64,000 bases of DNA from Planctomycetota bacterium. GTDB taxonomy: Bacteria > Planctomycetota > SZUA-567. The notes under the pieces were generated by a model. That model did no database searches. It had not been told where the DNA came from and saw only the letters and a program-made list of their open reading frames with translations. Positions 1 through 43,082 of the stretch are shown one piece after another (within the stretch, counting starts at the first letter, position 1; each line of letters opens with the position of its first letter). The position numbers and the translations under genes were made by a program. Where the stretch lies: positions 1,632-65,631 of the forward strand of contig JAISYD010000211.1 of NCBI GenBank assembly GCA_031270145.1, read 5' to 3'.

Positions 1-1
1 T

Positions 2-583
2 TTCATCATGTGGCCCACCTGGAAGGCTGCCTGGAAGGACGGGCTCGCCCCCTATTTCAACGGGGAATACGTGCAGATTTCCCCCGGGGAGATGCGCCGG
101 CTCCGCCAGGCCGAGGCGCTGGAGAGAAGCATGGCGCCCATCCGCAAATTCATGCTCGAGTGCCTGGCCGCCAACGACGGGCGGGAGGAATTGTACTTCT
201 TCCTGGGCGCGGCCGGCATGAAGGACGCGGCCAGCCTGGAAAACCAGGGCCGCCTGCTGCCGGCCGACATTCCCACCACCTCGCTCATCCCGGCCTTCAT
301 CTGCTCCGAACTCAAGCGCGCCTTCTGGATGGGATTCCTCCTCTACCTCCCCTTCCTGGTGCTGGACGTGGTAATCTCCTCCATCCTCATGGCCATGGGA
401 ATGATGATGCTGCCGCCGGTCATGATTTCGCTGCCGTTCAAGATCATAATTTTCGTCATCGTCGACGGCTGGCGGCTCCTTTTCGAAGGCATGATAACCA
501 GTTTTCCCGTCAGCGTCATCCAGGATCTCATCGCCCCGGCGGCCGGGGCGGTCGGGGCGGGCCTGGGGACGGGCGGTTTCTAA
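2..583 (+). CDS. fliP: Flagellar export-gate protein FliP (5' truncated by window edge)
   Basis: Frame is open from the window edge. Contains the FliP hallmark SLIPAFICSELKRAFWMGFLLYLPFLVLDVVISSILMAMGMMMLPPVMISLPFKIIIFVIVDGW. Followed by fliQ and fliR. Confidence 0.9.
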   Translation, partial: FIMWPTWKAAWKDGLAPYFNGEYVQISPGEMRRLRQAEALERSMAPIRKFMLECLAANDGREELYFFLGAAGMKDAASLENQGRLLPADIPTTSLIPAFICSELKRAFWMGFLLYLPFLVLDVVISSILMAMGMMMLPPVMISLPFKIIIFVIVDGWRLLFEGMITSFPVSVIQDLIAPAAGAVGAGLGTGGF

Positions 584-602
584 TTTCGTACGGGGGCCGG
601 GC

Positions 603-875
603 ATGGTGCCGGAAGTCCAGGACATCATCGACGTGGCCAACGGCATGCTGTGGACCTGCCTCATGCTGTCGCTGCCCCCCCTGCTGACCGCCCTGGTGGT
701 GGGCGTCCTGGTGTCGCTGATGCAAACGGTCACCAGCATCCAGGAAATGACCCTCACCTTCGTCCCCAAGCTGGTGGCGGTGGTGGGAGTGGTGTCGCTG
801 GCCCTTTCCTGGCTTATCGATTTCATAACCAACTACTTCGAGAACGCCTTGCGGATGTTCTCGAGCTATTATTGA
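603..875 (+). CDS. fliQ: Flagellar export-gate protein FliQ
   Basis: 90 aa with two hydrophobic helices. Contains the FliQ-type stretch QTVTSIQEMTLTFVPKL. Sits between fliP and fliR. Confidence 0.9.
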   Translation: MVPEVQDIIDVANGMLWTCLMLSLPPLLTALVVGVLVSLMQTVTSIQEMTLTFVPKLVAVVGVVSLALSWLIDFITNYFENALRMFSSYY

Positions 876-888
876 CGGGCGGGGAAGC

Positions 889-1749
889 ATGAGCGAGGAC
901 ATGTTCCAGGTCAGCCGCATCCTCTCGGCCTTTTTAACCTATGTCCTGGTGCTTCTGCGTTGCGGATCCCTGGTCCTCTTCGCGCCGTTTTTCAGTTCCG
1001 AGGTTTTCCCGGGGCGGTTCCGGATCCAGTTCGCGGCGGTTTTCCCGCTGCTGTTCCTTCCCCTGGCCTCGCGGACGGCCGAAATACCGAAAAACCTGGA
1101 CATGACCCAACTGGCCATCCTCGCCGGCCAGGAATTTTGCCTGGGCATGACCATTTCCTACCTGGGGACGCTCATCTTCACCGGGGTGCAGTTCGCCGGC
1201 GAAGTGGCGGGCCAGCAGATAGGCTTCGCCATGGCCAGCGTTCTCGACCCCCAGTCCGGGGTGGAAATGCCGATGCTCGGGTTCATCAACATCAACCTGG
1301 CCGTCATGGTCTTCGTGACCGCCAACCTCCACCTCGTTTTCATTTACATCATGATGAAAAGCTATGAATACCTGGGAATCGGCGCCCTCCTGCCGGAGGT
1401 CAACCTCAACAGCCCGGCCCTCGCCATGACCTATGTCCAGGCCACCGCCCTTATTCGGCTGGGCGTCCAGATGGCCGCCCCGGTCATCCTGGTGATGCTC
1501 CTGACCAGCATCGCCGAGGGCTTCATCACCAAGACCATGCCGCAACTCAACATCCAGGTGTTTGGAATCCCGGTGAAGGTGGCGGTCGGCCTTTGCACCC
1601 TGATTTTCCTCTATCCCGCCATCTGCGCCCTGCTGGTCCCCGCCGATTGGCGGTTCAATCTCCAGGAAATGCCCGAGGGTCCGTTCGGGGATTCGCTGAC
1701 CGAATTGCAACAGATGGTCCGCGACCTGAAGCCGGGATCGGACGGATAG
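889..1749 (+). CDS. fliR: Flagellar export-gate protein FliR
   Basis: 286-aa polytopic membrane protein in the canonical fliPQR-flhBA order. Confidence 0.85.
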   Translation: MSEDMFQVSRILSAFLTYVLVLLRCGSLVLFAPFFSSEVFPGRFRIQFAAVFPLLFLPLASRTAEIPKNLDMTQLAILAGQEFCLGMTISYLGTLIFTGVQFAGEVAGQQIGFAMASVLDPQSGVEMPMLGFININLAVMVFVTANLHLVFIYIMMKSYEYLGIGALLPEVNLNSPALAMTYVQATALIRLGVQMAAPVILVMLLTSIAEGFITKTMPQLNIQVFGIPVKVAVGLCTLIFLYPAICALLVPADWRFNLQEMPEGPFGDSLTELQQMVRDLKPGSDG

Positions 1750-1782
1750 CGGTCGGAAAAGGCCAAGGAAGGATGACGGCAA

Positions 1783-2871
1783 ATGGCGGCCGGCGCCGAA
1801 GAAAAGACGGAGGAACCAACCGCCAAAAGGAAGTCGGACGCCCGAAAACGCGGCAACATCCCCAAAAGCCGGGACTTGACGGCGGCGCTGGAGTTGCTGG
1901 GGGCCATCTACATCCTGCGCTATATCGGTCCGGCCATGGCCGGATATATGGAAAGTTTCATGCTTAAAATGCTGGGGCATGATTTTGGCGGCCTGCCCAT
2001 TCCGGAGGGGAAGGAGATTGTCGCCCACGCCGGCGACTGGGGCAAGTGGCTGGCGCTGATTCTGACGCCCTTCCTGATTCTCGCCTGCGTGATCGCCCTG
2101 GCCGTCAATGTCCTGCAGGTGGGGTTGAACGTCAGCTTTGAATCGGTGAAGCTCAATCTCGGCAAATTGAATCCGGTTTCAGGGGTCAAGAGGCTCTTCA
2201 GTGCGCGGAACCTAGTGCACCTGCTAATGAATCTGGGCAAGCTGGCGCTGGTCATCCCGGTCGCCTGGTGGGTGATAAACCTGGAATTCCGGAACATCCT
2301 GCCCCTGTTGGAAATGGGGACGGGCGGAATCCTGGTTCACCTGGTCGATCGCACCCTGGGACTGGCGAGGAATCTGGCCCTGCTGCTCCTGGCCCTGGGA
2401 CTGGCGGACTATTATTACCAAAAACGCAAGCACAACAATGAATTGAAGATGACCAAGCAGGAGGTGAAGGAGGAATTCAAGCAAATGGAGGGCTCGCCGG
2501 AAGTGAAGTCGAAAATCCGCCAGAAGCAGCGGGAAGCGGCCCAACGGCGGATGATGGCCGAGGTTCCCCAAGCCGAGGTGGTGGTGAGGAACCCCACCCA
2601 CTTCGCGGTGGCGATTTCCTACAAGCCGGACATGCCGGCGCCCATGGTGGTGGCGAAGGGCAAGGACCGGCTGGCGCTAAGGATCATCGAAATCGCCGAG
2701 GCGGCCGGAGTTCCGATCTGGTCGGACCCCCCCTTGGCCCGGGAACTCCACAAAAAAGTGGAGATCGGGGAGGATATCCCGGCGGAGCTTTACGCCGCCG
2801 TGGCCGAGGTATTCAGCGTCGTCTTTTCCCCGGAGAAAAAGCGAAGGCTCATGGAGGCGAGCGCGGCGTAA
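1783..2871 (+). CDS. flhB: Flagellar export switch protein FlhB
   Basis: N-terminus EEKTEEPTAKRKSDARKRGNIPKSRDL. Autocleavage motif NPTH in VVRNPTHFAVAISY. AAGGAAGGA lies upstream of the ATG. Confidence 0.9.
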   Translation: MAAGAEEKTEEPTAKRKSDARKRGNIPKSRDLTAALELLGAIYILRYIGPAMAGYMESFMLKMLGHDFGGLPIPEGKEIVAHAGDWGKWLALILTPFLILACVIALAVNVLQVGLNVSFESVKLNLGKLNPVSGVKRLFSARNLVHLLMNLGKLALVIPVAWWVINLEFRNILPLLEMGTGGILVHLVDRTLGLARNLALLLLALGLADYYYQKRKHNNELKMTKQEVKEEFKQMEGSPEVKSKIRQKQREAAQRRMMAEVPQAEVVVRNPTHFAVAISYKPDMPAPMVVAKGKDRLALRIIEIAEAAGVPIWSDPPLARELHKKVEIGEDIPAELYAAVAEVFSVVFSPEKKRRLMEASAA

Positions 2872-5070
2872 ATGAGCGCGATACCGCAACAGGGCAGGGA
2901 ATTGCTGAGGCTCTCGGGCGACCGGCTTATGCGGCTGCTGGGGCGCGAAGGCAACAAGAACATCCTGATCTCCGTCTTCGTGATTTGCGCCCTGGCGGCC
3001 ATGCTGGTGCCCCTGCCCGCCTTTTTCATGGACATCGCGGTCGGGATCAACATCCTCCTGGCCCTAATCCTCCTGATGATGACCATCTTCGTGGAACAGC
3101 CGCTCAACTTCAGCACCTTCCCCTCGGTGCTGCTGGTCCTGACCCTCTTCCGGCTGTCCCTGAACATTTCCTCCACCCGCCTCATCCTCAGCCGGGGGCA
3201 GGAAGGCATCGGGGCGGCCGGCAACCTCATCGCCACCTTCGGCGCCTTCGTGGGGGGCGGCGGCAGCGTCGAGGGCATCAACCGCCTGAGCTCCCTGGCG
3301 GTCGGGGTGACCATCTTCATCATTCTCGTGATTATCCAATACCTGGTCATCACCCGGGGCTCGACCCGGGTGGCCGAGGTGGCGGCCAGGTTCACCCTGG
3401 ACGCCATGCCGGGAAAGCAGATGGCCATCGACGCCGATCTCAACTCCGGCATAATCACCGAACAGGAGGCGGTCGCCCGGCGGCTGGAAATCCAGCGCCA
3501 GGCCGCCTTCTTCGGGGCCATGGACGGCGCCGCCAAGTTCGTTTCCGGCGACACCGTCGCCGGCATCATCATCACCGGCATCAACATCCTCTTCGGCTTC
3601 GTCATCGGCGTCTTCATCCACGGGATGGAGTTCGTCGAGGCGGCCAGGGTATTCACCATCCTGACCATAGGCGACGGCCTGGCCGCCCAGATACCGGCCC
3701 TGCTCATCAGCGTGGGGGCCGGCCTCCTGGTGACCCGCAACGCCGAACGCGCCGAGTTCGGCGGCGAAGTCCTGGGGCAGTTCTTCGGGCAGCACAAGCC
3801 CATCGCGGCGGCCACGGTGATGGTGGCCGGCCTCGGCCTCTCCGGGCTGGTGGGCCTGACCCCCTTCCCGCCCCTGCCCCTCTTCGTCGTCTCGGGAATC
3901 TGCTTCTGCCTATGGCTGGTGGCGCGAAGGTCGGCGGCCGCCGCGACCCTGGAAGCCCGGGAAAAGGCCGAAGCCAAAAAGGACGAGGCCGGGGCGAAGC
4001 CGGCCGAGGCCGACAGCGTGGAAAAACTCCTGGCCATCGACGCCCTGGGGGTCGAGGTCGGCTACGGGGTGGTGCCGCTGGTCGACAAGCAGCAGCCCGG
4101 CGGGGGCGGGCTGCTGCAGCGGGTGCAGATGATCCGCCAGCAACTGGCGGTGGAGCTGGGCATCATAGTTCCCCCCATCCGCATCCGGGACAACCTCGAA
4201 CTGGAGGCCAACGATTACGTGGTGAAGATTCAGGGCGCCCCGGTGGCCAGGGGCTCGGTCGAGGCGGACAGGCTCCTGGCCATAGATTCCGGGGCCGCCA
4301 CCGAAAAGCTCGAGGGCGACGCCACCGTGGAGCCGGCCTTCGGGATGCCGGCGGTGTGGATTTATCCCTCCGGCCGCGAATACGCCGAGCGGGTCGGCTA
4401 CACGGTGGTCGACGCCGAGACGGTGATGGCGACCCACCTGACGGAAATCATCCGCTCCCGCGCCGCCGAGCTGCTGACCCGGGACGAGATGCGCAAGCTC
4501 CTCGAAACCCTGAAGAAAAATTCCCCGGGGGCGGTGGAGGAGGTGGTGCCCGGAATTCTTTCCGCGGCCGAGGTGCAGAAGGTCCTGCAGAACCTCCTCC
4601 AGGAGAAGGTGTCGATCCGCAATCTCGGGGCCATCCTCGAGGTGCTGGGGGACGTCGGCCGCCGCACCAAGGACCCCGACATCCTCACCGAATTCGCCAG
4701 GAACGGCCTGAAGCGCTGGCTCTGCAACGAATACGCCGCCCCCGGAACCCGCAAATTGCACGTGATCACCCTGGATCCGCGGCTGGAGGAGCAAATTCAG
4801 CAGCATGTCGAGCACACGGACGGGGGATCGTTCCTCACCCTGCGCCCGGCCGCCAGCCAGCGCTTGGTGGAGGCCATCTCGGCCGAGGTCCAGCGCCAGG
4901 TCCAGGGCGGCAACAATCCGCTTCTCCTGACCGGCCCGCAGGTGCGGCTGCACGTCAAGCGGATGACCCAGGCCCGCCTGCCGATGCTGGCCGTCATTTC
5001 CTACAATGAAATTCTCCAGGATTACGAGTCGATATCGGTTGGGATGGTGAAACTCGACTTGAACCAGTAA
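2872..5070 (+). CDS. flhA: Flagellar export apparatus protein FlhA (FHIPEP family)
   Basis: 732 aa. TAA-ATG abuts flhB. N-terminal polytopic domain carries the FHIPEP-type stretch RFTLDAMPGKQMAIDADLNSGIITEQEA, followed by a large cytoplasmic C-domain. Confidence 0.95.
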   Translation: MSAIPQQGRELLRLSGDRLMRLLGREGNKNILISVFVICALAAMLVPLPAFFMDIAVGINILLALILLMMTIFVEQPLNFSTFPSVLLVLTLFRLSLNISSTRLILSRGQEGIGAAGNLIATFGAFVGGGGSVEGINRLSSLAVGVTIFIILVIIQYLVITRGSTRVAEVAARFTLDAMPGKQMAIDADLNSGIITEQEAVARRLEIQRQAAFFGAMDGAAKFVSGDTVAGIIITGINILFGFVIGVFIHGMEFVEAARVFTILTIGDGLAAQIPALLISVGAGLLVTRNAERAEFGGEVLGQFFGQHKPIAAATVMVAGLGLSGLVGLTPFPPLPLFVVSGICFCLWLVARRSAAAATLEAREKAEAKKDEAGAKPAEADSVEKLLAIDALGVEVGYGVVPLVDKQQPGGGGLLQRVQMIRQQLAVELGIIVPPIRIRDNLELEANDYVVKIQGAPVARGSVEADRLLAIDSGAATEKLEGDATVEPAFGMPAVWIYPSGREYAERVGYTVVDAETVMATHLTEIIRSRAAELLTRDEMRKLLETLKKNSPGAVEEVVPGILSAAEVQKVLQNLLQEKVSIRNLGAILEVLGDVGRRTKDPDILTEFARNGLKRWLCNEYAAPGTRKLHVITLDPRLEEQIQQHVEHTDGGSFLTLRPAASQRLVEAISAEVQRQVQGGNNPLLLTGPQVRLHVKRMTQARLPMLAVISYNEILQDYESISVGMVKLDLNQ

Positions 5071-5076
5071 GGGATC

Positions 5077-5208
5077 GTCCATAAACAACTTATACAAGTT
5101 TATACCGCGTCGCCAACGTCGCTCTCGTAAATTTTTGCCCAATCACGGGCGAAAATTTACCGCCGCGACTCGGTTCCCTGTCTAAACATGTATAAGTTAT
5201 TTATGGAC
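5077..5208. repeat. Nested-hairpin inverted-repeat element A (flhA-flhF intergenic)
   Basis: Outer arms 5077..5102 gtccataaacaacttatacaagttta and 5183..5208 taaacatgtataagttatttatggac match 24/26 as reverse complements. Inner hairpin: 5127..5140 gtaaatttttgccc, loop aatcac, 5147..5160 gggcgaaaatttac. Confidence 0.7.
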
Positions 5209-5262
5209 AGACCCCAAGGGTCCGCGGGACGCTCGGGGAAGTCCCCCGAATGGAAAGGACGC

Positions 5263-6576
5263 ATGGGCGGGGCCGACGGGAAAACCCACATCTTTCGCGG
5301 CAAGACCTGCGCCGAAGCCGTCAGCAAGGCCAAGAGCAAGCTGGGGCGGGACATCGTCGTGGTCAAACGGAGAAACGTCCGCCTGGAGACCCTGTTCAGC
5401 CGCCTGACCTCGGGGAAACTAGGGGGGGATTCGCTCGAGGTCGAATTGGAGGTGGCGGAGGCTTCCCGGAACGGGAAGGAGGACGCCGCCGCCCGGCCGG
5501 ACAAGCCGCCGAATCCGTTGCTCCGGACCTACGCCAAGGCCTTGGAGGGACTGGAAAAATACAATCCCGAAACCAGGAAGGCCATGGAATCGGCCGCCGC
5601 CCCCTTTTTGCGGCTGGGGGAAACCGCCACCGGGATAACCGGGCGCCTGGACAAACTGCAGCTGGAGCTGGAACAAAGCCGGCGGGAAAGCGCCGACAAA
5701 TGGGAGGAAATACTTTCCCTCATCTCCCTCCAGGCCCGGGGGGGGGTGCCGGCCGTTTCCAACGAACTGCTGTCCATCCACCGATCCCTGGTCGCCAAGG
5801 GCATTGACGAGAACCTGGCCCGGGAAATAGTGGAGGAGGTGGAGGAAACCGGGGACGAATCCCCGGAAAAATTGAACGCCGAGCTTTTCCGGGCGGTGTC
5901 CCGGCGCCTGCCGGTCGCCGCCCCGGTGCTGCTCCGGGAGACCGGACCCACCGTGGTGGCGGCGATTGGCCCCTCGGGGATGGGCAAAACCACCACCATC
6001 GCCAAGCTGGCCATCCAGTTCGGCGTCAAGGACAGGCGCCGGGTGGGGTTGATCAACGAGGATTTCCGCCGGCCCGGCGCCGAGGGCCAGATCAACAACC
6101 TGGGCAGGATGTTCGGCCTGGCCATCGCCACCGCCAGCGGGCCCGGGGAAATGCGCGAGGCGGTGGAATCCCTGGCCGGCCAGGAATTAATCCTCATCGA
6201 CACCTCGGGGAGATCGCCATTGGACGGGGACGCCATCGGCGCCCTGACCGAAACGCTCCGGGCCGCCGGGGTGCATGAAACGCACCTGGTGCTGTCCAGC
6301 CTGGCCTCCGACCGGACCCTGGCCGGACTGGCGGAACGCTTCCGGCCGGCCGGATTCGATCGCATCATCATGACCAAGCTGGACGAATCCCTGTGCCGCG
6401 GCGACATCCTCAACGCCATGTCGCGGCTGGCCGACGGCCTGAGCTACGTCACCAGCAGTCCGGACTACTCCGCCCCCATCCGGGCCGCCGACCGCGCCTG
6501 GCTGGCCGAATTGATCCTGGGCAATCCCGGAGGGGAAGGAAGAACCGGCGGCGAATATGGAGAAGCGGCGACATGA
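5263..6576 (+). CDS. flhF: Flagellar SRP-type GTPase FlhF
   Basis: G1 GPSGMGKTTTIAKLA, G3 DTSGRS, G4 TKLDE. FlhF-like N-terminus KTHIFRGKTCAEAVSKAKSKLGRDIVVV. ATG 5263 is preferred because GGAAAGGA lies upstream. The ORF-track start 5188 lies inside the right arm of element A. Confidence 0.85.
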   Translation: MGGADGKTHIFRGKTCAEAVSKAKSKLGRDIVVVKRRNVRLETLFSRLTSGKLGGDSLEVELEVAEASRNGKEDAAARPDKPPNPLLRTYAKALEGLEKYNPETRKAMESAAAPFLRLGETATGITGRLDKLQLELEQSRRESADKWEEILSLISLQARGGVPAVSNELLSIHRSLVAKGIDENLAREIVEEVEETGDESPEKLNAELFRAVSRRLPVAAPVLLRETGPTVVAAIGPSGMGKTTTIAKLAIQFGVKDRRRVGLINEDFRRPGAEGQINNLGRMFGLAIATASGPGEMREAVESLAGQELILIDTSGRSPLDGDAIGALTETLRAAGVHETHLVLSSLASDRTLAGLAERFRPAGFDRIIMTKLDESLCRGDILNAMSRLADGLSYVTSSPDYSAPIRAADRAWLAELILGNPGGEGRTGGEYGEAAT

Positions 6577-6893
6577 TGGCGAAAAAGATGGCCGGCTTCT
6601 TCTCCATCATCGGCGTCATCGTCTTCCTCGGCAACTGGCTGTACTTCTGCCTGCTGCCCAGGGACTTCGACCGGGAGCCGATGACCGCCGAAACCGCCTG
6701 GGAGGTCGGCATCTATTTGTCGGCCGCCTTCTTCCTGCTAGGCCTCTTCGTCTCCACCCTTGGGATAGCCCTGGTGCAGGAGGCGCTGGCGGAGAACAGA
6801 AGCCGCGACATCGAAAAGAAATTCCGGGCCAAATCGGCCTATGATCTGGCGATGGCCGAAACAATGAAGACCGCCGGACAGTCAAAATCGTAA
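6573..6893 (+). CDS. Small two-TM membrane protein, translationally coupled to flhF
   Basis: The ATG at 6573 overlaps the flhF TGA (ATGA). 106 aa, MMAKKMAGFFSIIGVIVFLGNWLYF... with two hydrophobic segments. I recognise no family. Confidence 0.55.
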   Translation: MMAKKMAGFFSIIGVIVFLGNWLYFCLLPRDFDREPMTAETAWEVGIYLSAAFFLLGLFVSTLGIALVQEALAENRSRDIEKKFRAKSAYDLAMAETMKTAGQSKS

Positions 6894-6967: not shown

Positions 6968-7774
6968 ATGAACGACTACCTTGACGATTACACCCCCCCG
7001 CCGCCCCTGGGCGAAAGGGAGGAGACGGAACTGTGGCGGAGATACCGGAAGGAAAACGACGACGAGGCCAGATGCAAATTGATCGAGAACTACATGCCGC
7101 TGGTCATCGAAATGGCGGAACGGATGGCCAAGAAACTGCCGACCTTCCTGGACGTGCAGGACCTGTGCAGCTCCGGGAACTTCGGCCTGATCGACGCCGT
7201 CGAAAAATTCGATCCCGACGAGGGCGTCAAGTTTTCCACCTACTGCAACCTGCGCATCAACGGGGCGATCAAGGACGAATTGCGCCGGCAGGACTGGCCG
7301 TCCCGCCAGGTGCGCCAGAAGGCCAACACCGTCAGGCGCACCCGCGACGAATTGGAAAACCGCCTGGGACGGATTCCCGACGACGGCGAAATGGCGGAAT
7401 ACCTGGGCCTGGACCGGAAAAAATACGACGATCTCCTGCGGGACAGCCAAATCAAGACCATGGTCTCCCTGGACCGCAAGTGGGACGACAACGACGACAA
7501 CGAGATCGGCCACATTGAAATGCTCCCCGACGCCAAGGCGGCGGATCCGCTGGCCGAGCTTTCCCGGGCCGAAATAAAGGAGGTGGCCCTGCGCGGCCTC
7601 TCGGAGGATCAAAAAAGGGTGCTTACCCTCTATTATTACGAGAATCTCAATCTCAAGGAAATCGGCCTGGCGCTGGATCTTTCGGAAAGCCGGGTCTGCC
7701 AAATTCACCAGCAGACCCTGGAGTTCCTGAAGAAGAAATTCATCCAGCGCCAGATCACCCCCTTTTCCCTGTGA
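6968..7774 (+). CDS. fliA: Flagellar sigma factor FliA (sigma-28)
   Basis: Sigma-70 family regions 2 to 4 (YMPLVIEMAERMAKKLP...; LKEIGLALDLSESRVCQIHQQTL). GGAGG at 6955..6959 lies 8 nt before ATG 6968; the alternative start is 6953. Location downstream of flhF is typical. Confidence 0.85.
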   Translation: MNDYLDDYTPPPPLGEREETELWRRYRKENDDEARCKLIENYMPLVIEMAERMAKKLPTFLDVQDLCSSGNFGLIDAVEKFDPDEGVKFSTYCNLRINGAIKDELRRQDWPSRQVRQKANTVRRTRDELENRLGRIPDDGEMAEYLGLDRKKYDDLLRDSQIKTMVSLDRKWDDNDDNEIGHIEMLPDAKAADPLAELSRAEIKEVALRGLSEDQKRVLTLYYYENLNLKEIGLALDLSESRVCQIHQQTLEFLKKKFIQRQITPFSL

Positions 7775-7948
7775 GTCGACTTTTAGAGCGTGTTGTTAAA
7801 TACCGGATCGCCCGGGTTAGACAAGGAAAAAGGCGCTGGCAGGATGATTTTTGGCCGGCGGTCAGGGGTAAAAATCATCCGAGAAGCGGCTTTTGACGCA
7901 GTATAACCCGACGAGACGGCATTTAACAACACGCCCTAAAAGTCAACT
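7774..7948. repeat. Nested-hairpin inverted-repeat element B (fills the fliA-gltL convergent gap)
   Basis: Arms 7774..7801 agtcgacttttagagcgtgttgttaaat and 7921..7948 atttaacaacacgccctaaaagtcaact match 26/28. Inner hairpin 7842..7852 ggatgattttt and 7870..7880 aaaaatcatcc. The ends abut or overlap both stop codons (fliA TGA 7772..7774, gltL stop 7947..7949). Confidence 0.7.
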
Positions 7949-11469: not shown

Positions 11470-11510
11470 TTTAAAGGAAATCGGGCGGCGGCCGGCGAGA
11501 TTTTTTTAAA
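11470..11510. repeat. Degenerate member of the TTTAAAGGAAATC hairpin family
   Basis: tttaaaggaaatc (11470..11482), 16-nt centre gggcggcggccggcga, then gatttttttaaa (11499..11510). Confidence 0.45.
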
Positions 11511-11754
11511 AGCCAACAAGGAAATCGGCGAAGTATTTTGATATGGCCGGCCGTACGGTGTTGGCCAGCGGGTTTTTGGATACGCTTTCGGGCGGACGAA
11601 GATCGGGCCGCTGGCCGAGATCGATTACGCCGGCCGGCGGTCACCGAGACCGGCGGGCCTTCCGCCCTCCGGGTGAATTCGGCCGGCTGCCACTCGCTCC
11701 GCTCCGGCCTGGGGGTGCGGCTCGCCCACGCCGCCGGCTCCCGCTCCGCCTTTT

Positions 11755-23773: not shown

Positions 23774-23824
23774 GGATTTTAAAGGAAATCAAGCGGGGGT
23801 TTGGTTCGATTTCTTTAAAAGTCC
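23774..23824. repeat. TTTAAAGGAAATC hairpin-family member
   Basis: tttaaaggaaatc (23778..23790), 17-nt centre aagcgggggtttggttc, then gatttctttaaa (23808..23819). Intergenic. Confidence 0.6.
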
Positions 23825-23873
23825 ACCACCCGGCAAGGTGGCAATTGTTTCACAAGCCCGCCTGGAACCGGCT

Positions 23874-29974: not shown

Positions 29975-30090
29975 GGGGGACATGGCTGTCTGGCGTTGCA
30001 AGGTGAAACATTTCAACCCGTGACAAAATCGTTACCGCCATGGAGAGGTTTTTCCCCAAGCGAATATTTGTTTCGGAGATTCCCCGAAGT

Positions 30091-30182
30091 TGTCGACTTT
30101 TAAAGGAAATCGGGCCAACCGCCGCCCGATTTCCTTTAAAGATTAAACCGCTTGCGTTTGTTTGATTTCCTTCAAAAGTCAA
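30091..30182. repeat. Composite TTTAAAGGAAATC element (three arms), MITE/REP-like
   Basis: Arm a 30091..30110 gtcgacttttaaaggaaatc pairs with arm b 30127..30140 gatttcctttaaag, or with arm c 30163..30182 gatttccttcaaaagtcaac (18/20). GAAGTTG occurs on both flanks (30085..30091 and 30184..30190). Confidence 0.7.
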
Positions 30183-30398
30183 CTGAAGTTGTTTGAATTG
30201 TTTTTCCCTTGCGTTTCAATTAATTCCATTTAAGATACTCGGAGGAAGGGCAAAATTCACGTCTCTCAACCCATAATTCCAGGCTAACGCTTGGGAAAAG
30301 GTTTAATTGCCCGGCAATTCAAGCGAATTGGGTCGGAAGTTTTGAGGGACTATTGTTGTAACGTTCACAAAATCATGATCTTCACCAAATTATAGCAT

Positions 30399-39319: not shown

Positions 39320-40495
39320 TTATACCGGTTCGGCGACCGGCGTCAAGGCCCCGTGCCGGGCATAAACCGCCGCCAGCCTTTGCGCCGATCCTTCCCAGGT
39401 GAAGGCGGTTTCCGCCGCCACCCGCCCGTTTCGTCCCATCCAGGCGGAGGTTTCCGGATCCGCGAAGGAGGAAAGCATGACCCGGGCCAGGGCGGCGGGT
39501 TCAGCTTCGGTCACCCAGCCGTTTTGGCCGGGGAGGACGAATTCGCCCGGAACCGTTCCCGCCAGGACGGCGGCCGGACGGGAAGCGGCCCAGGCCGGCA
39601 GTACCGCCCGACCGCTGAAATCGCGGCGGAAAGGGACCAAAACCAGGTTGGAGAAAGAGTAGAATTCGGGGGGAACGGCGCCTCCCTCGGGGGGAAAAAA
39701 CACCGCCGCGTCGCCGGCTTCCCTTCGCATTTCATTTTCAAGCGGGCCTTCCCCGATGAAAATGAACCTGGCTTCGGGAAAATGTTTTGCGGCCAGCCGG
39801 CAGGCCCGGGCGGCGAGATCGCCGCCTCCAGAGCGGGAAAACCGCCCGGCAAACAATACCGCCGGGGCATTCGGGGCCAAACCGGATATTTCCTGGATTC
39901 GGAATGTCCTTTCCGCCGTCCCCGGGTCCGGGAAGTCGGTCCCGTAGGAAACCACCTCGCATTTCCAATCGGGAGGATGGAATTGCTCCTGGATCTTTTG
40001 TTTTGTCCAGCGTGAAACCGCAACCACGGCGTCGGCCGCTTCAATTCCCCGGCGTTCCAGTTCGGCGATGCGGGCCGAATCGCCGGAATCCGGCCATATC
40101 CCGGTTCGTCCCCATTCGGTCGAGTGGAAGCTTGTCGCCAAGCGGGCGCCGCACAGTTCGGCCGCCCCGATTCCCGCTCCGATGGTCAGCCAATCATGGC
40201 AATGCACCACGTCATAACCGCCCCCGTCCCTCAGGGAATCGGCGAAATAATGAATGAAAGATCGGGAAAGGGCGGCGATCTCGTCGCAAAAAACCGGCTT
40301 GCGATCCCAGGAGCAACGGCGAATCATGACCCCGTTCACCGCCCCTTCCATGGCTTGGCCGTTTCCCCGGCGGGTGAACAGCCTAACCCGGTGCCCCGCC
40401 TTGGCCAGGGCGGCGGCCAGGCGGCTGGCATACAACGCCCCTCCGCCCACCGTTATTCCCTCCAGGGCTTCCCAGGCGAACATGGCTATGTTCAT
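39320..40495 (-). CDS. GT-B glycosyltransferase (GT4/GT5-like)
   Basis: N-terminus MNIAMFAWEALEGITVGGGALYASRLAAALAKAGHRV is typical of glycosyltransferases, with a C-terminal GT1-type domain. Its start faces the palindrome axis 64 nt away. Confidence 0.8.
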   Translation of the reverse strand: MNIAMFAWEALEGITVGGGALYASRLAAALAKAGHRVRLFTRRGNGQAMEGAVNGVMIRRCSWDRKPVFCDEIAALSRSFIHYFADSLRDGGGYDVVHCHDWLTIGAGIGAAELCGARLATSFHSTEWGRTGIWPDSGDSARIAELERRGIEAADAVVAVSRWTKQKIQEQFHPPDWKCEVVSYGTDFPDPGTAERTFRIQEISGLAPNAPAVLFAGRFSRSGGGDLAARACRLAAKHFPEARFIFIGEGPLENEMRREAGDAAVFFPPEGGAVPPEFYSFSNLVLVPFRRDFSGRAVLPAWAASRPAAVLAGTVPGEFVLPGQNGWVTEAEPAALARVMLSSFADPETSAWMGRNGRVAAETAFTWEGSAQRLAAVYARHGALTPVAEPV

Positions 40496-40533
40496 TCGCT
40501 TCCCATCCGCTTCGGGGTTGGGGAACTTCCGGC

Positions 40534-40585
40534 GGGCTTTTAAAGAAAATCAAGCCAAGCTTGGCTTGATTTTCTTTAAAAGCCC
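40534..40585. repeat. Axis hairpin: perfect 52-bp palindrome, member of the TTTAAAGGAAATC family
   Basis: gggcttttaaagaaaatcaagccaag|cttggcttgattttctttaaaagccc. Arm 40539..40551, 16-nt centre 40552..40567, arm 40568..40580. Confidence 0.85.
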
Positions 40586-40623: not shown

Positions 40624-41799
40624 ATGAACATAGCCATGTTCGCCTGGGAAGCCCTGGAGGGAATAACGGTGGGCGGAGGGGCGTTGTATGCCAGCCGCCT
40701 GGCCGCCGCCCTGGCCAAGGCGGGGCACCGGGTTAGGCTGTTCACCCGCCGGGGAAACGGCCAAGCCATGGAAGGGGCGGTGAACGGGGTCATGATTCGC
40801 CGTTGCTCCTGGGATCGCAAGCCGGTTTTTTGCGACGAGATCGCCGCCCTTTCCCGATCTTTCATTCATTATTTCGCCGATTCCCTGAGGGACGGGGGCG
40901 GTTATGACGTGGTGCATTGCCATGATTGGCTGACCATCGGAGCGGGAATCGGGGCGGCCGAACTGTGCGGCGCCCGCTTGGCGACAAGCTTCCACTCGAC
41001 CGAATGGGGACGAACCGGGATATGGCCGGATTCCGGCGATTCGGCCCGCATCGCCGAACTGGAACGCCGGGGAATTGAAGCGGCCGACGCCGTGGTTGCG
41101 GTTTCACGCTGGACAAAACAAAAGATCCAGGAGCAATTCCATCCTCCCGATTGGAAATGCGAGGTGGTTTCCTACGGGACCGACTTCCCGGACCCGGGGA
41201 CGGCGGAAAGGACATTCCGAATCCAGGAAATATCCGGTTTGGCCCCGAATGCCCCGGCGGTATTGTTTGCCGGGCGGTTTTCCCGCTCTGGAGGCGGCGA
41301 TCTCGCCGCCCGGGCCTGCCGGCTGGCCGCAAAACATTTTCCCGAAGCCAGGTTCATTTTCATCGGGGAAGGCCCGCTTGAAAATGAAATGCGAAGGGAA
41401 GCCGGCGACGCGGCGGTGTTTTTTCCCCCCGAGGGAGGCGCCGTTCCCCCCGAATTCTACTCTTTCTCCAACCTGGTTTTGGTCCCTTTCCGCCGCGATT
41501 TCAGCGGTCGGGCGGTACTGCCGGCCTGGGCCGCTTCCCGTCCGGCCGCCGTCCTGGCGGGAACGGTTCCGGGCGAATTCGTCCTCCCCGGCCAAAACGG
41601 CTGGGTGACCGAAGCTGAACCCGCCGCCCTGGCCCGGGTCATGCTTTCCTCCTTCGCGGATCCGGAAACCTCCGCCTGGATGGGACGAAACGGGCGGGTG
41701 GCGGCGGAAACCGCCTTCACCTGGGAAGGATCGGCGCAAAGGCTGGCGGCGGTTTATGCCCGGCACGGGGCCTTGACGCCGGTCGCCGAACCGGTATAA
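40624..41799 (+). CDS. GT-B glycosyltransferase (mirror copy)
   Basis: Reverse-complement twin of 39320..40495 with identical 391-aa translation. Confidence 0.8.
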   Translation: MNIAMFAWEALEGITVGGGALYASRLAAALAKAGHRVRLFTRRGNGQAMEGAVNGVMIRRCSWDRKPVFCDEIAALSRSFIHYFADSLRDGGGYDVVHCHDWLTIGAGIGAAELCGARLATSFHSTEWGRTGIWPDSGDSARIAELERRGIEAADAVVAVSRWTKQKIQEQFHPPDWKCEVVSYGTDFPDPGTAERTFRIQEISGLAPNAPAVLFAGRFSRSGGGDLAARACRLAAKHFPEARFIFIGEGPLENEMRREAGDAAVFFPPEGGAVPPEFYSFSNLVLVPFRRDFSGRAVLPAWAASRPAAVLAGTVPGEFVLPGQNGWVTEAEPAALARVMLSSFADPETSAWMGRNGRVAAETAFTWEGSAQRLAAVYARHGALTPVAEPV

Positions 41800-41900: not shown

Positions 41901-43082
41901 CTACGGCAACGGTTCCCGGCGGGGAGGAAGGTATTTCCGGTTTTCCCGGGCCGCCTGTCCGGCCGCCTCCTGTTCGTCCCGGCGGTCAAGATCGGCGAAA
42001 CGGCGACTGGCCCAGGCGAATTCACTTCGCTTTCCAGAAGCCCCGTAAATATAGCCCCAGGTAGCCCGATGGCCACGCAAATCAAGATGCAGGGTCACCT
42101 CGTGATCCCCTCCGACGGTGTTGTAGACTCCCAAGCCGCCCAGTGGTATTTTTCCTTCGGCCTGGAGATCTTCCATCAGTCCGATTAGGGGATAAGCGTC
42201 CCGGTGGTCCAACCGGCCGTCATGATTGAGATCGGCCGCCTTGCCGCTGCCGTCGAGCCCGATATAGAAATCGAAGGCGTCGCCGTAGAGATGCCGGCTG
42301 AAGGAATTGGAGCCGATGCCGCGATTGTGGGCGGGGGAGCGGAACATGCTGATAATCCTTAACGATTCCGCCGGCAATCCCAGGGCGGGAAGCGCTTCCC
42401 GGAGGCTGCGGATTGCCAACCACATGGGATAGCAAACAGGCGCCAAATCGGTATGCCGGGGGCCGCCATCCTCGGGGGGGGACACCAAGTCGCCCGCCGC
42501 GAGGCCGGGGACCACCTCAAAAGTCGAGTTGCCCGGAGTGAGTTTCAGCCACCATACCGGCGGCCGATAACTTTCGGGATGTTTTTTCACCTTGAGGTTG
42601 CCGGATCGGGAGGGATGGCGGTAGCGGCCGATCCTCTCGCCGTCCACAAAAAGTTCACTCCCCTCCCCCGTCCGTTTTTCCTCCGCCCGGTGGGCAATCA
42701 CGACGCAAAGCGTCTTTTCCCGGTTGCCGCCGGGCGCCGCCGCCGCCAAGCCGAGGTAATAGGCTCCCGGCTGTTCCGGCGCCGTGAAAAAAAGGGTTCT
42801 TTCCCGGCGGAGGGGAAGACCGTCGCGCATGACAATCAGATCGGTTTCGGGGAAGTCGGCGGAAACGGCGGAAATCTCGAACTCGGCGCCCGCCTGGACG
42901 AGGATCAACGGGTTGGCGGAAAATACCAACTCCAGGCTCTCGCCGGCCGGAGCCGGCCAGCGACAGCGAAGCGCCACCTCCCCGGCCGGCTCCGCAGCCG
43001 CCGCCAGCGGGACAATCAATCCGGCCAGTCCGCAAAGCAGCCGGAACGTCGGGGCCGAAAAAAAGGAGAGGGCGTCCTTCAT
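41901..43082 (-). CDS. Peptidase M15 domain protein (mirror copy)
   Basis: Twin of 38037..39218 with identical translation. Confidence 0.65.
   Translation of the reverse strand: MKDALSFFSAPTFRLLCGLAGLIVPLAAAAEPAGEVALRCRWPAPAGESLELVFSANPLILVQAGAEFEISAVSADFPETDLIVMRDGLPLRRERTLFFTAPEQPGAYYLGLAAAAPGGNREKTLCVVIAHRAEEKRTGEGSELFVDGERIGRYRHPSRSGNLKVKKHPESYRPPVWWLKLTPGNSTFEVVPGLAAGDLVSPPEDGGPRHTDLAPVCYPMWLAIRSLREALPALGLPAESLRIISMFRSPAHNRGIGSNSFSRHLYGDAFDFYIGLDGSGKAADLNHDGRLDHRDAYPLIGLMEDLQAEGKIPLGGLGVYNTVGGDHEVTLHLDLRGHRATWGYIYGASGKRSEFAWASRRFADLDRRDEQEAAGQAARENRKYLPPRREPLP

Follow-up and report, generated by a model that had tools for sequence, protein, structure and literature searches.

A perfect palindrome in a planctomycete contig, centred on the terminal hairpin of a MITE-like element and probably of technical origin

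MITEs and REP/REPIN elements are small intergenic repeats of 90-200 bp, which are non-coding, present in multiple copies, often located beside the starts or ends of genes and able to form hairpins, all of which are properties shared by the repeat family that we describe here. Like this family, MITEs also possess terminal inverted repeats, together with short flanking duplications that have a possible counterpart in direct repeats beside some of the family's copies, and the Correia elements of Neisseria provide an example of MITEs in which the terminal repeats are structured. On a far larger scale, the rDNA of Tetrahymena is a giant palindrome nucleated by a short inverted repeat, while the hairpin telomeres of Borrelia, of phage N15 and of the linear chromosome of Agrobacterium yield a zero-spacer palindrome when they are read around.

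A further set of described systems is technical in nature. In work on single-cell genomes, palindromic contigs that were exact mirrors were discarded as artefacts (10.1101/2023.06.06.543983), and the assemblers SPAdes and MEGAHIT fully traverse palindromic unitigs instead of splitting them, a self-mirror edge requiring an exact palindrome of at least k-1 (PMC9528984). Chimeras are also generated at inverted repeats during library preparation, where multi-base changes arise at the centres of near-palindromes (PMC10908179, PMC6941819), and long-read data contain 0.5-0.6% of fold-back reads, which are able to tangle assembly graphs (PMC12870357). The locus considered here lies in a 64,000-nt stretch of DNA from a Planctomycetota bacterium (the window, by which we mean the whole of the stretch analysed) and combines a perfect palindrome with an axis that falls within the loop of a dispersed, MITE-like hairpin.

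The palindrome and its genomic setting

Positions 17119-40559 and 40560-64000 of the 64-kb window are exact reverse complements of one another, forming arms of 23,441 nt that are 100% identical and separated by a spacer of 0 nt; as the right arm ends only where the window itself ends, 23,441 nt represents a lower bound. The axis is located between 40559 and 40560, in the middle of the hexamer AAGCTT, with AAG on its left and CTT on its right. The left arm (17119-40559, forward strand) is presumably real genomic sequence, and this real sequence extends further left to position 1, while the mirror arm (40560-64000), which copies 17119-40559 on the reverse strand, is most likely an artefactual duplication.

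Immediately around the axis, tttaaagaaaatc at 40539-40551, aagccaagcttggctt at 40552-40567 and gattttctttaaa at 40568-40580 bear out the 13 + 16 + 13 architecture that a first-pass annotation of this DNA had described for 40539-40580. The region runs from GGGC through TTTTAAAGAAAATC and AAGCCAAG up to the axis, and from there through CTTGGCTT and GATTTTCTTTAAA to AGCCC; the sequence to the left ends in ATCAAGCCAAG at 40559, and the string across the junction is AAGCCAAGCTTGGCTT. On the forward strand, a degenerate tip, GCGGGCT (40532-40538), which differs at two positions from the GTSGACT preceding the outer arm in relatives, constitutes the outer, gene-proximal end of the repeat element. It is followed by a genuine 13-nt outer arm, TTTAAAGAAAATC (40539-40551), with one mismatch to the family consensus, and by a genuine half-spacer (40552-40559) composed of the inner-stem half AAGC and the first four loop bases, CAAG. 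What follows on the same strand at 40560-40580 (CTTG, GCTT and GATTTTCTTTAAA) is the mirror of 40539-40559 and not an observed native right arm. Both the right arm at 40568-40580 and the right half-spacer exist by construction of the palindrome and therefore offer no independent evidence; of the symmetric element at 40534-40585, one half is real and the other its mirror. The central AAGCTT is likewise uninformative, since some palindromic hexamer is inevitable at such a centre and nine further AAGCTT sites, against 5.3 expected, are intact in the unique half of the window.

The start codon of a gene encoding a GT4 glycosyltransferase (39320-40495, reverse strand; Pfam Glycos_transf_1 / Glyco_trans_4; P0001, 100% identity) is 44 nt from the outer arm, which places the axis in the upstream region of this gene. 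Neighbouring genes encode FliR, FlhB, FlhA and FlhF, parts of an ABC transporter, a class-V aminotransferase, a Na/Pi cotransporter, a HEAT-repeat protein, a pseudouridine synthase, CinA and an M15 peptidase, and the neighbourhood of the axis is an ordinary chromosomal region. Neither a telomere resolvase nor a phage gene was found among 21 ORFs of the unique 40.5 kb (20 scanned against Pfam, together with the precomputed domains of the GT4 protein).

In a collection of 15 billion proteins, the exact GT4 sequence forms a single-member cluster assigned to a Planctomycetota bacterium MAG and to one contig of 84,380 nt, with no occurrence on any other contig. It carries two consecutive NCBI accessions, MDR1520112.1 and MDR1520113.1. 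Two adjacent accessions for one sequence are what is expected of mirrored gene copies, and thus the palindrome is present within the deposited record. The deposited length corresponds to 2 x 42,190 nt, which fits a mirror of the entire contig with its axis at 42,190, in which case both arms would end together. The next-best GT4 protein (MDR1519664.1) is 73% identical, and the closeness of its accession suggests that it belongs to the same submission.

Searches for the unduplicated locus covered both protein and DNA. No record matched the two axis-proximal proteins, P0001 or P0002 in exact look-ups, and the left flank plus arm, searched as exact DNA, gave 0 matches as a 27-mer in viral contigs and 0 as a 23-mer in metagenome contigs. 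A scan of genome contigs with the GT4 protein reached at best 33% identity among the matches listed, and the nearest relative that could be retrieved (L167, 68% identity) has a different upstream gene and no element. As the source genome itself is apparently absent from the collections searched, the missing continuation carries no weight.

A dispersed hairpin family

The arm sequence at the axis belongs to a repeat that recurs in the window. With up to 2 mismatches allowed, TTTAAAGGAAATC has 16 matches in the window compared with 1.4 expected, a number reached in 0 of 100 shuffles, and the tip motif GTSRACTTTTRRAG has 7 matches compared with 0.23 expected. The non-mirrored 40.5 kb contains four family loci, at 11470-11512, 23778-23820 and 30099-30140 and at the axis, where the left arm (40539-40551) alone represents independent data. 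The three copies away from the axis had already been noticed, starting at 11470, 23778 and 30098, and all are recovered here, the last shifted by one base.

The hairpin at 30099-30140 (forward strand; TTTAAAGGAAATC / GGGCCAACCGCCGCCC / GATTTCCTTTAAA) forms part of a complete mini-element of 92 bp (30092-30183, forward strand), which comprises the tip GTCGACT, the hairpin with its loop CAACCGCC, a 23-nt core and the inverted tip GATTTCCTTCAAAAGTCAAC at 30164-30183. The inverted tips of this mini-element are 20 nt long, and it is flanked by GAAGTT at 30086-30091 and again at 30185-30190, with an offset of 1 nt. Folded as DNA it reaches -18 kcal/mol (z -5.8), and the intact copies range from -15 to -18 kcal/mol (z -5.8 to -7.6). 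A solo copy (23778-23826, forward strand) has the stop of a 2-hydroxyacid dehydrogenase gene on one side and the start of an AbrB-family gene on the other; it has a 17-nt spacer, a right arm with one indel (the hairpin itself spanning 23778-23820) and the tip GTCCAC. The copy at 11470-11512 (forward strand) is degenerate, with an intact left arm and a decayed right arm, and now folds poorly (z -0.98). Finally, a 175-bp element at 7774-7948 (forward strand) has terminal inverted repeats of 42 nt with tips AGTCGACTTTTAGAG and CTAAAAGTCAACT; it shares the GTYGACTTTT end of the hairpin elements around a different interior.

Relatives beyond the window were identified by scanning metagenome contigs for both arms separated by a gap of 14-19 nt. 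The scan returned 20 contigs, which without exception belong to the WGS sets QMCD01 and QMCE01, accessions for which a literature search gave no match, and in 20 of 20 the spacer is 16 nt long, made up of an 8-nt loop between two inner-stem halves of 4 nt (AAAC-GGCGGTTT-GTTT or, on the opposite strand, AAAC-AAACCGCC-GTTT). A profile search of these 20 contigs and the window yielded approximately 45 hairpins, in which both arms are present save for a few degenerate copies. The family, with about 45 copies in two organisms, thus has a 13+4+8+4+13 layout adding up to a 42-nt hairpin, which consists of an AT-rich outer stem of 13 bp, a variable inner stem of 4 bp and a conserved, asymmetric 8-nt loop, MAACCGCC. 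The string given for family copies is GTSGACTTTTRAAGRAAATC.

In an alignment of 24 sequences, pairing holds in 91% of cells and both partners have changed in 6 of 17 pairs, a level equalled in 0 of 500 shuffles; sliding the partner by one column lowers pairing to 54-61%. Covarying inner stems are of the AAAC/GTTT, GGGC/GCCC, GAGC/GCTC and AAGC/GCTT types, and one outer pair has changed from A-T to C-G. Judged by this covariation, the family hairpin is genuine, selected and structurally constrained.

Further resolution of the family comes from a composite of about 198 bp in the other metagenome, which carries a hairpin at each end, in inverted orientation, around a conserved core of about 95 nt, its tips being AGTCGAG at one end and AGTCCAC at the other. 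Direct repeats of 4-6 bp (TTTT, ATAA, GGAG, GTTCTG and AGTAT) flank 5 of the 9 composites that could be evaluated, the other copies having none. About 8 composite copies are located directly upstream of start codons and about 7 beside convergent gene ends, and this mixed placement at gene starts and ends points to an intergenic mobile repeat and not to a dedicated leader or terminator. Terminal inverted repeats, as in MITEs, were found in the 198-bp composite and in the elements at 30092-30183 and 7774-7948, and the copies are small, non-coding, multiple and dispersed (4 in 40.5 kb of the window and about 45 hairpins in the 20 contigs). On the strength of these sequence features we regard the family as a previously undescribed MITE-like element in which the terminal inverted repeats are hairpins. 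The 21 window ORFs compared with Pfam included no transposase, Rfam 15 gave 0 matches at gathering score for the window and five related loci, neither the composite nor the window mini-element showed similarity to plasmid records in BLAST searches, and viral contigs searched with the 15-mer arm gave single chance matches only.

Two other classifications do not fit. An intrinsic terminator or riboswitch-like leader was rejected, being at odds with the A+T-rich outer 13 bp, with the mixed orientation of the copies relative to genes and with the structure of inverted repeats and flanking duplications; the hairpin is followed by A(A)GTCCAC and not by a T-run, and copies precede gene starts as often as they follow gene ends. 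As for REP/REPIN elements, no GTAG adjoins the hairpins, and the window ORFs that were examined yielded no Y1 or IS200-like protein.

The contigs of the other metagenome also indicate who carries the family. On a 9.4-kb contig there is an amidase gene, and the relatives of its product that bear a name come from Elusimicrobiota MAGs (52-67% identity); the G+C content of these contigs is 46-60% compared with about 62% in the window. The family therefore occurs in a second, probably distantly related organism. Its occurrence both in a Planctomycetota MAG and in Elusimicrobiota-like contigs hints at a hairpin-recognising transposition system that may have moved between lineages.

Set against this family, the left half of the axis copy fits well. 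Its half-spacer, AAGC-CAAG, follows the RRRC-MAAC pattern of the family, agreeing in 3 of the 4 loop bases, and its inner-stem half, AAGC, is of a type found in relatives; the G at 40559 is off-family, this position being C in 22 of 24 aligned copies and G in none. The mirrored half-loop, CTTG, matches the family CGCC at 1 of 4 positions, and no symmetric loop occurs among the roughly 45 relatives, in line with the earlier observation that the loops of other copies are asymmetric. With a left half that resembles the family and a right half that does not, 40560-40580 is best read as a mirror image, no native right arm having been observed; since nearly all relatives carry both arms, the native locus probably possesses a right arm together with the rest of the element.

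The distance from the 13-nt arm to the axis is 8 nt, which is precisely the mid-spacer position of the hairpin family. Given six arm-like sites in 40,559 unique bases, we calculate a probability of about 1.5e-4 that a junction placed at random would come to lie exactly 8 nt past such a site. Taken together, this probability and the mid-spacer position provide good support for a non-random fold-back at the apex of a pre-existing hairpin element. The initial proposal that the fold-back point is not random is accordingly upheld, in that the point is the geometric centre of one member of a hairpin family whose covariation is matched by 0 of 500 shuffles and which numbers about 45 copies.

Origin of the mirror

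We put at roughly 80% the probability that the palindrome is a technical fold-back (chimeric library molecules and/or assembler traversal), nucleated at the terminal hairpin of a MITE-like element in an ordinary chromosomal region; the technical status of the mirror is something that we infer rather than demonstrate. It is favoured by the 100% identity over more than 23 kb, the even length of 84,380 nt, the single source contig and the housekeeping context. According to this explanation, the sequence up to 40559 would be normal Planctomycetota chromosome, in which the GT4 gene is preceded by one end of a MITE-like element, and the sequence from 40560 onward would be the same sequence on the opposite strand, technical in origin and with no second genomic copy. 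The hairpin would render the site prone to fold-back in the library, a strand becoming joined to its own reverse complement, and in the assembly graph SPAdes or MEGAHIT would pass through the existing self-mirroring junction to produce a palindromic contig.

The hairpin by itself is not enough. Assembly proceeded normally across the other three family hairpins of the contig, and in the second metagenome 0 of 20 contigs share a 30-mer with their own reverse complement, all of their loops being asymmetric, from which it follows that the element predisposes to fold-back and is not a sufficient cause. A pure de Bruijn-graph artefact arising from the family hairpin was rejected for k of at least 21, as the stems are 17 bp and the loops asymmetric, the exception being a native centre that forms an exact palindrome of at least k-1. 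Some contigs of the second metagenome end in or beside an element (L172, L174 and L185), an ordinary repeat effect that does not occur at the apex.

A key feature that complicates this explanation is the perfect symmetry of the centre. Snap-back mediated by the arms should leave the loop asymmetric, such that a perfect centre calls for an extra assumption; the 8-nt loop or its complement would be kept not only by such snap-back but also by cruciform resolution, by fold-back priming and by pairing of the PDSM type. The first-pass annotation had likewise reasoned that snap-back would preserve an asymmetric loop, and biological fold-back inversions do retain their spacer (PMC10622511). Two routes to symmetry can be envisaged within the technical explanation, and we consider them to have roughly equal odds. 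In the first, the centre (CAAGCTTG) would be natively palindromic, and any snap-back or self-mirror edge would turn it into a perfect palindrome. In the second, a turn-around or break would occur exactly at the apex, for example when a strand-displacing polymerase switches to the displaced strand, giving a sequence joined to its own reverse complement without a spacer, or when two molecules broken at the same loop position are joined head to head. A natively symmetric centre would be an outlier, 3-4 changes away from the conserved loop, and one templated event of quasi-palindrome correction could produce it. If the next native base is the family C, the junction would contain a 2-nt GC microhomology.

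One competing explanation is that the mirror is physical, the DNA either ending in or being duplicated around a covalently closed turn-around exactly at the apex of the MITE hairpin. We regard this as unlikely; were it true, the hairpins of a mobile element would serve as sites of hairpin ends or of giant palindromes in an uncultured planctomycete. Also unlikely is an in-vivo inverted duplication at the hairpin through fold-back priming after a nearby break, a replication template switch or the fusion of sisters after a break in the loop. Short inverted repeats near breaks are known to nucleate inversions via hairpin-capped intermediates, and the axis does lie within such a repeat, but inversions primed by fold-back retain a spacer at their centre (PMC10622511) and none is present here. 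The deposited length of exactly 2 x 42,190 nt furthermore suggests arms that end together, as expected of a mirrored path and not of an embedded duplication. In a bacterial chromosome, moreover, great instability would be expected of a palindrome that measures at least 47 kb and has no spacer.

A similarly small chance attaches to coincidence, that is, to a decayed solo left arm with an unrelated fold-back 8 nt away, the hairpin then being a product of the mirroring. In its favour, the right arm owes its existence to the mirroring and so adds no independent evidence, decay is seen in other copies (little is left of the right arm at 11470-11512), and the axis copy is divergent both at the tip motif and at 40559, where it has G. 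The exact mid-spacer landing, at about 1.5e-4, tells against it, as do the 8 nt that follow the arm, which conform to the family in both inner stem (RRRC) and loop (MAAx), and the two-armed state of the approximately 45 relatives, a few degenerate copies excepted.

About as improbable is a covalently closed hairpin end, the telomere of a linear replicon whose tip was read around or replicated. Such a read-around would yield the exact symmetry and the 100% identical arms that are seen, but an exact palindrome is common to telomere read-around and to artefact and does not discriminate between them; similarly, the native continuation was found in no collection, an absence deprived of weight by the apparent lack of the source genome from those collections. 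The tip would have to sit in a housekeeping region of flagellar and transporter genes, 44 nt upstream of a GT4 gene that is itself ordinary, and nothing resembling a telomere resolvase turned up in the 21 ORFs compared with Pfam. The site, moreover, represents one half of a MITE hairpin that is dispersed, with its other copies in internal positions and with asymmetric loops. To our knowledge, linear chromosomes are not known in Planctomycetota. The replicated, hairpin-capped end that had been put forward for this locus is consequently possible but unlikely, the housekeeping context in particular disfavouring it.

The weakest candidate is a head-to-head ligation of two HindIII ends at a native AAGCTT, through restriction cloning or proximity ligation: joining two identical A^AGCTT ends does give a zero-spacer palindrome and the central hexamer is AAGCTT, but any zero-spacer palindrome has a palindromic hexamer at its centre, a given one arising in 1 of 64 cases, the loop would have to be CAAGCTTN, off the conserved family loop at 3-4 of 8 positions, and with the nine other AAGCTT sites intact in the unique half (5.3 expected) we rejected this origin as unsupported.

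Comparison with known systems

If the technical reading is correct, a public 84-kb MAG contig is probably only half real, with its genes deposited twice, as in the case of the one GT4 protein under two accessions. The locus would then exemplify how short structured repeats can seed fold-backs of whole contigs, and it is a reason to check assemblies for contigs that are their own reverse complement before undertaking gene counts, analyses of duplication or searches for inverted terminal repeats. The real biological finding is modest, namely a MITE-like family with self-folding hairpin terminal repeats.

Among described systems, the whole-contig palindromic contigs reported previously (10.1101/2023.06.06.543983; PMC9528984) are likewise exact mirrors; their axis is not tied to a repeat family, whereas here it lies in the loop of a MITE hairpin. 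The PDSM/HyperPlus chimeras (PMC10908179, PMC6941819) similarly join a strand to its own reverse complement at inverted repeats, with changes that perfect the centres of palindromes, but these are low-frequency, read-level events in human panels, whereas here the event dominates the contig. In the fold-back inversions of yeast sae2/mre11 mutants (PMC10622511), a short inverted repeat also centres a large inverted duplication; in that system the spacer is kept and the process is demonstrated in vivo, whereas the present palindrome has no spacer and is known from the deposited sequence. Hairpin telomeres differ from this locus in that here no resolvase gene was found among the ORFs examined, the context is one of housekeeping genes and the site is one half of a repeat that is dispersed and has copies in internal positions. 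The family itself, while sharing the general form of MITEs and REPs, stands apart in that it lacks the GTAG motif typical of REPs and that a full hairpin, its loop conserved and its inner stem covarying, makes up each terminal repeat.

Elements sharing ends with the hairpin family

A 175-bp element at window positions 7774-7948 carries 42-nt terminal inverted repeats with the tips AGTCGACTTTTAGAG and CTAAAAGTCAACT. These tips have the GTYGACTTTT end in common with the hairpin elements, the MITE-like family whose terminal repeats fold into a 13-nt outer arm, a 4-nt inner stem and a conserved 8-nt loop, and the interior of the 175-bp element is unrelated to theirs. The 175-bp element is probably a second MITE type, mobilised through the ends common to both. 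A 92-bp mini-element at 30092-30183 (30086-30190 with its flanks) has GAAGTT on either side, the right-hand hexamer being offset by 1 nt. The reverse complement, AACTTC, occurs 2 nt before the tip of the hairpin copy at the mirror axis (between 40559 and 40560). The presence of this hexamer beside both the mini-element and the axis copy may reflect either a target preference or coincidence.

Strand asymmetry within the hairpin

In the 24-sequence hairpin alignment, pair 9/36 is an AxC mismatch in 13 of the 24 copies when read on the strand whose loop is C-rich, and these same copies read as a G.T (G.U) wobble on the opposite strand. If the hairpin works as a single strand, the strand bearing the G-rich loop (GGCGGTTK) would be the favoured one. 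At the axis, this strand is the sense strand of the adjacent family-4 glycosyltransferase gene (GT4).

Related composites in a second metagenome

The 20 contigs of the WGS sets QMCD01 and QMCE01 (L168-L187) contain a composite repeat of ~198 bp, in which hairpin terminal repeats accompany a conserved core of ~95 nt that includes CAGTTGACTTGGCAATAATTGCCTGCGCAAACGG; a start codon often lies 15-40 nt beyond its end. Three of these contigs (L172, L174 and L185) end within the repeat or precisely at its edge, bases 1-42 of L174 being the hairpin itself. None of the three contig ends coincides with the loop apex; they are ordinary repeat-induced fragmentation. An amidase encoded at 4786-6063 of L174 is 52-67% identical to proteins named Elusimicrobiota, and the G+C content of the QMCD/QMCE loci is 46-60%, compared to ~62% for the window. 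On the evidence of the L174 amidase, a single protein, the host of these elements looks Elusimicrobiota-like, and the repeat family may therefore be common to more than one phylum.

Gene content and double deposition

The MAG is labelled Planctomycetota, and positions 1-6600 of the window hold a flagellar export gene cluster encoding FliR, FlhB, FlhA and an FlhF-like SRP54-type GTPase. The GT4 gene (39320-40495; mirror copy at 40624-41799) is represented by one protein under two consecutive public accessions, MDR1520112.1 and MDR1520113.1. Every gene of the mirrored arm has therefore presumably been deposited twice, which inflates the gene totals and the apparent duplications of this Planctomycetota MAG.
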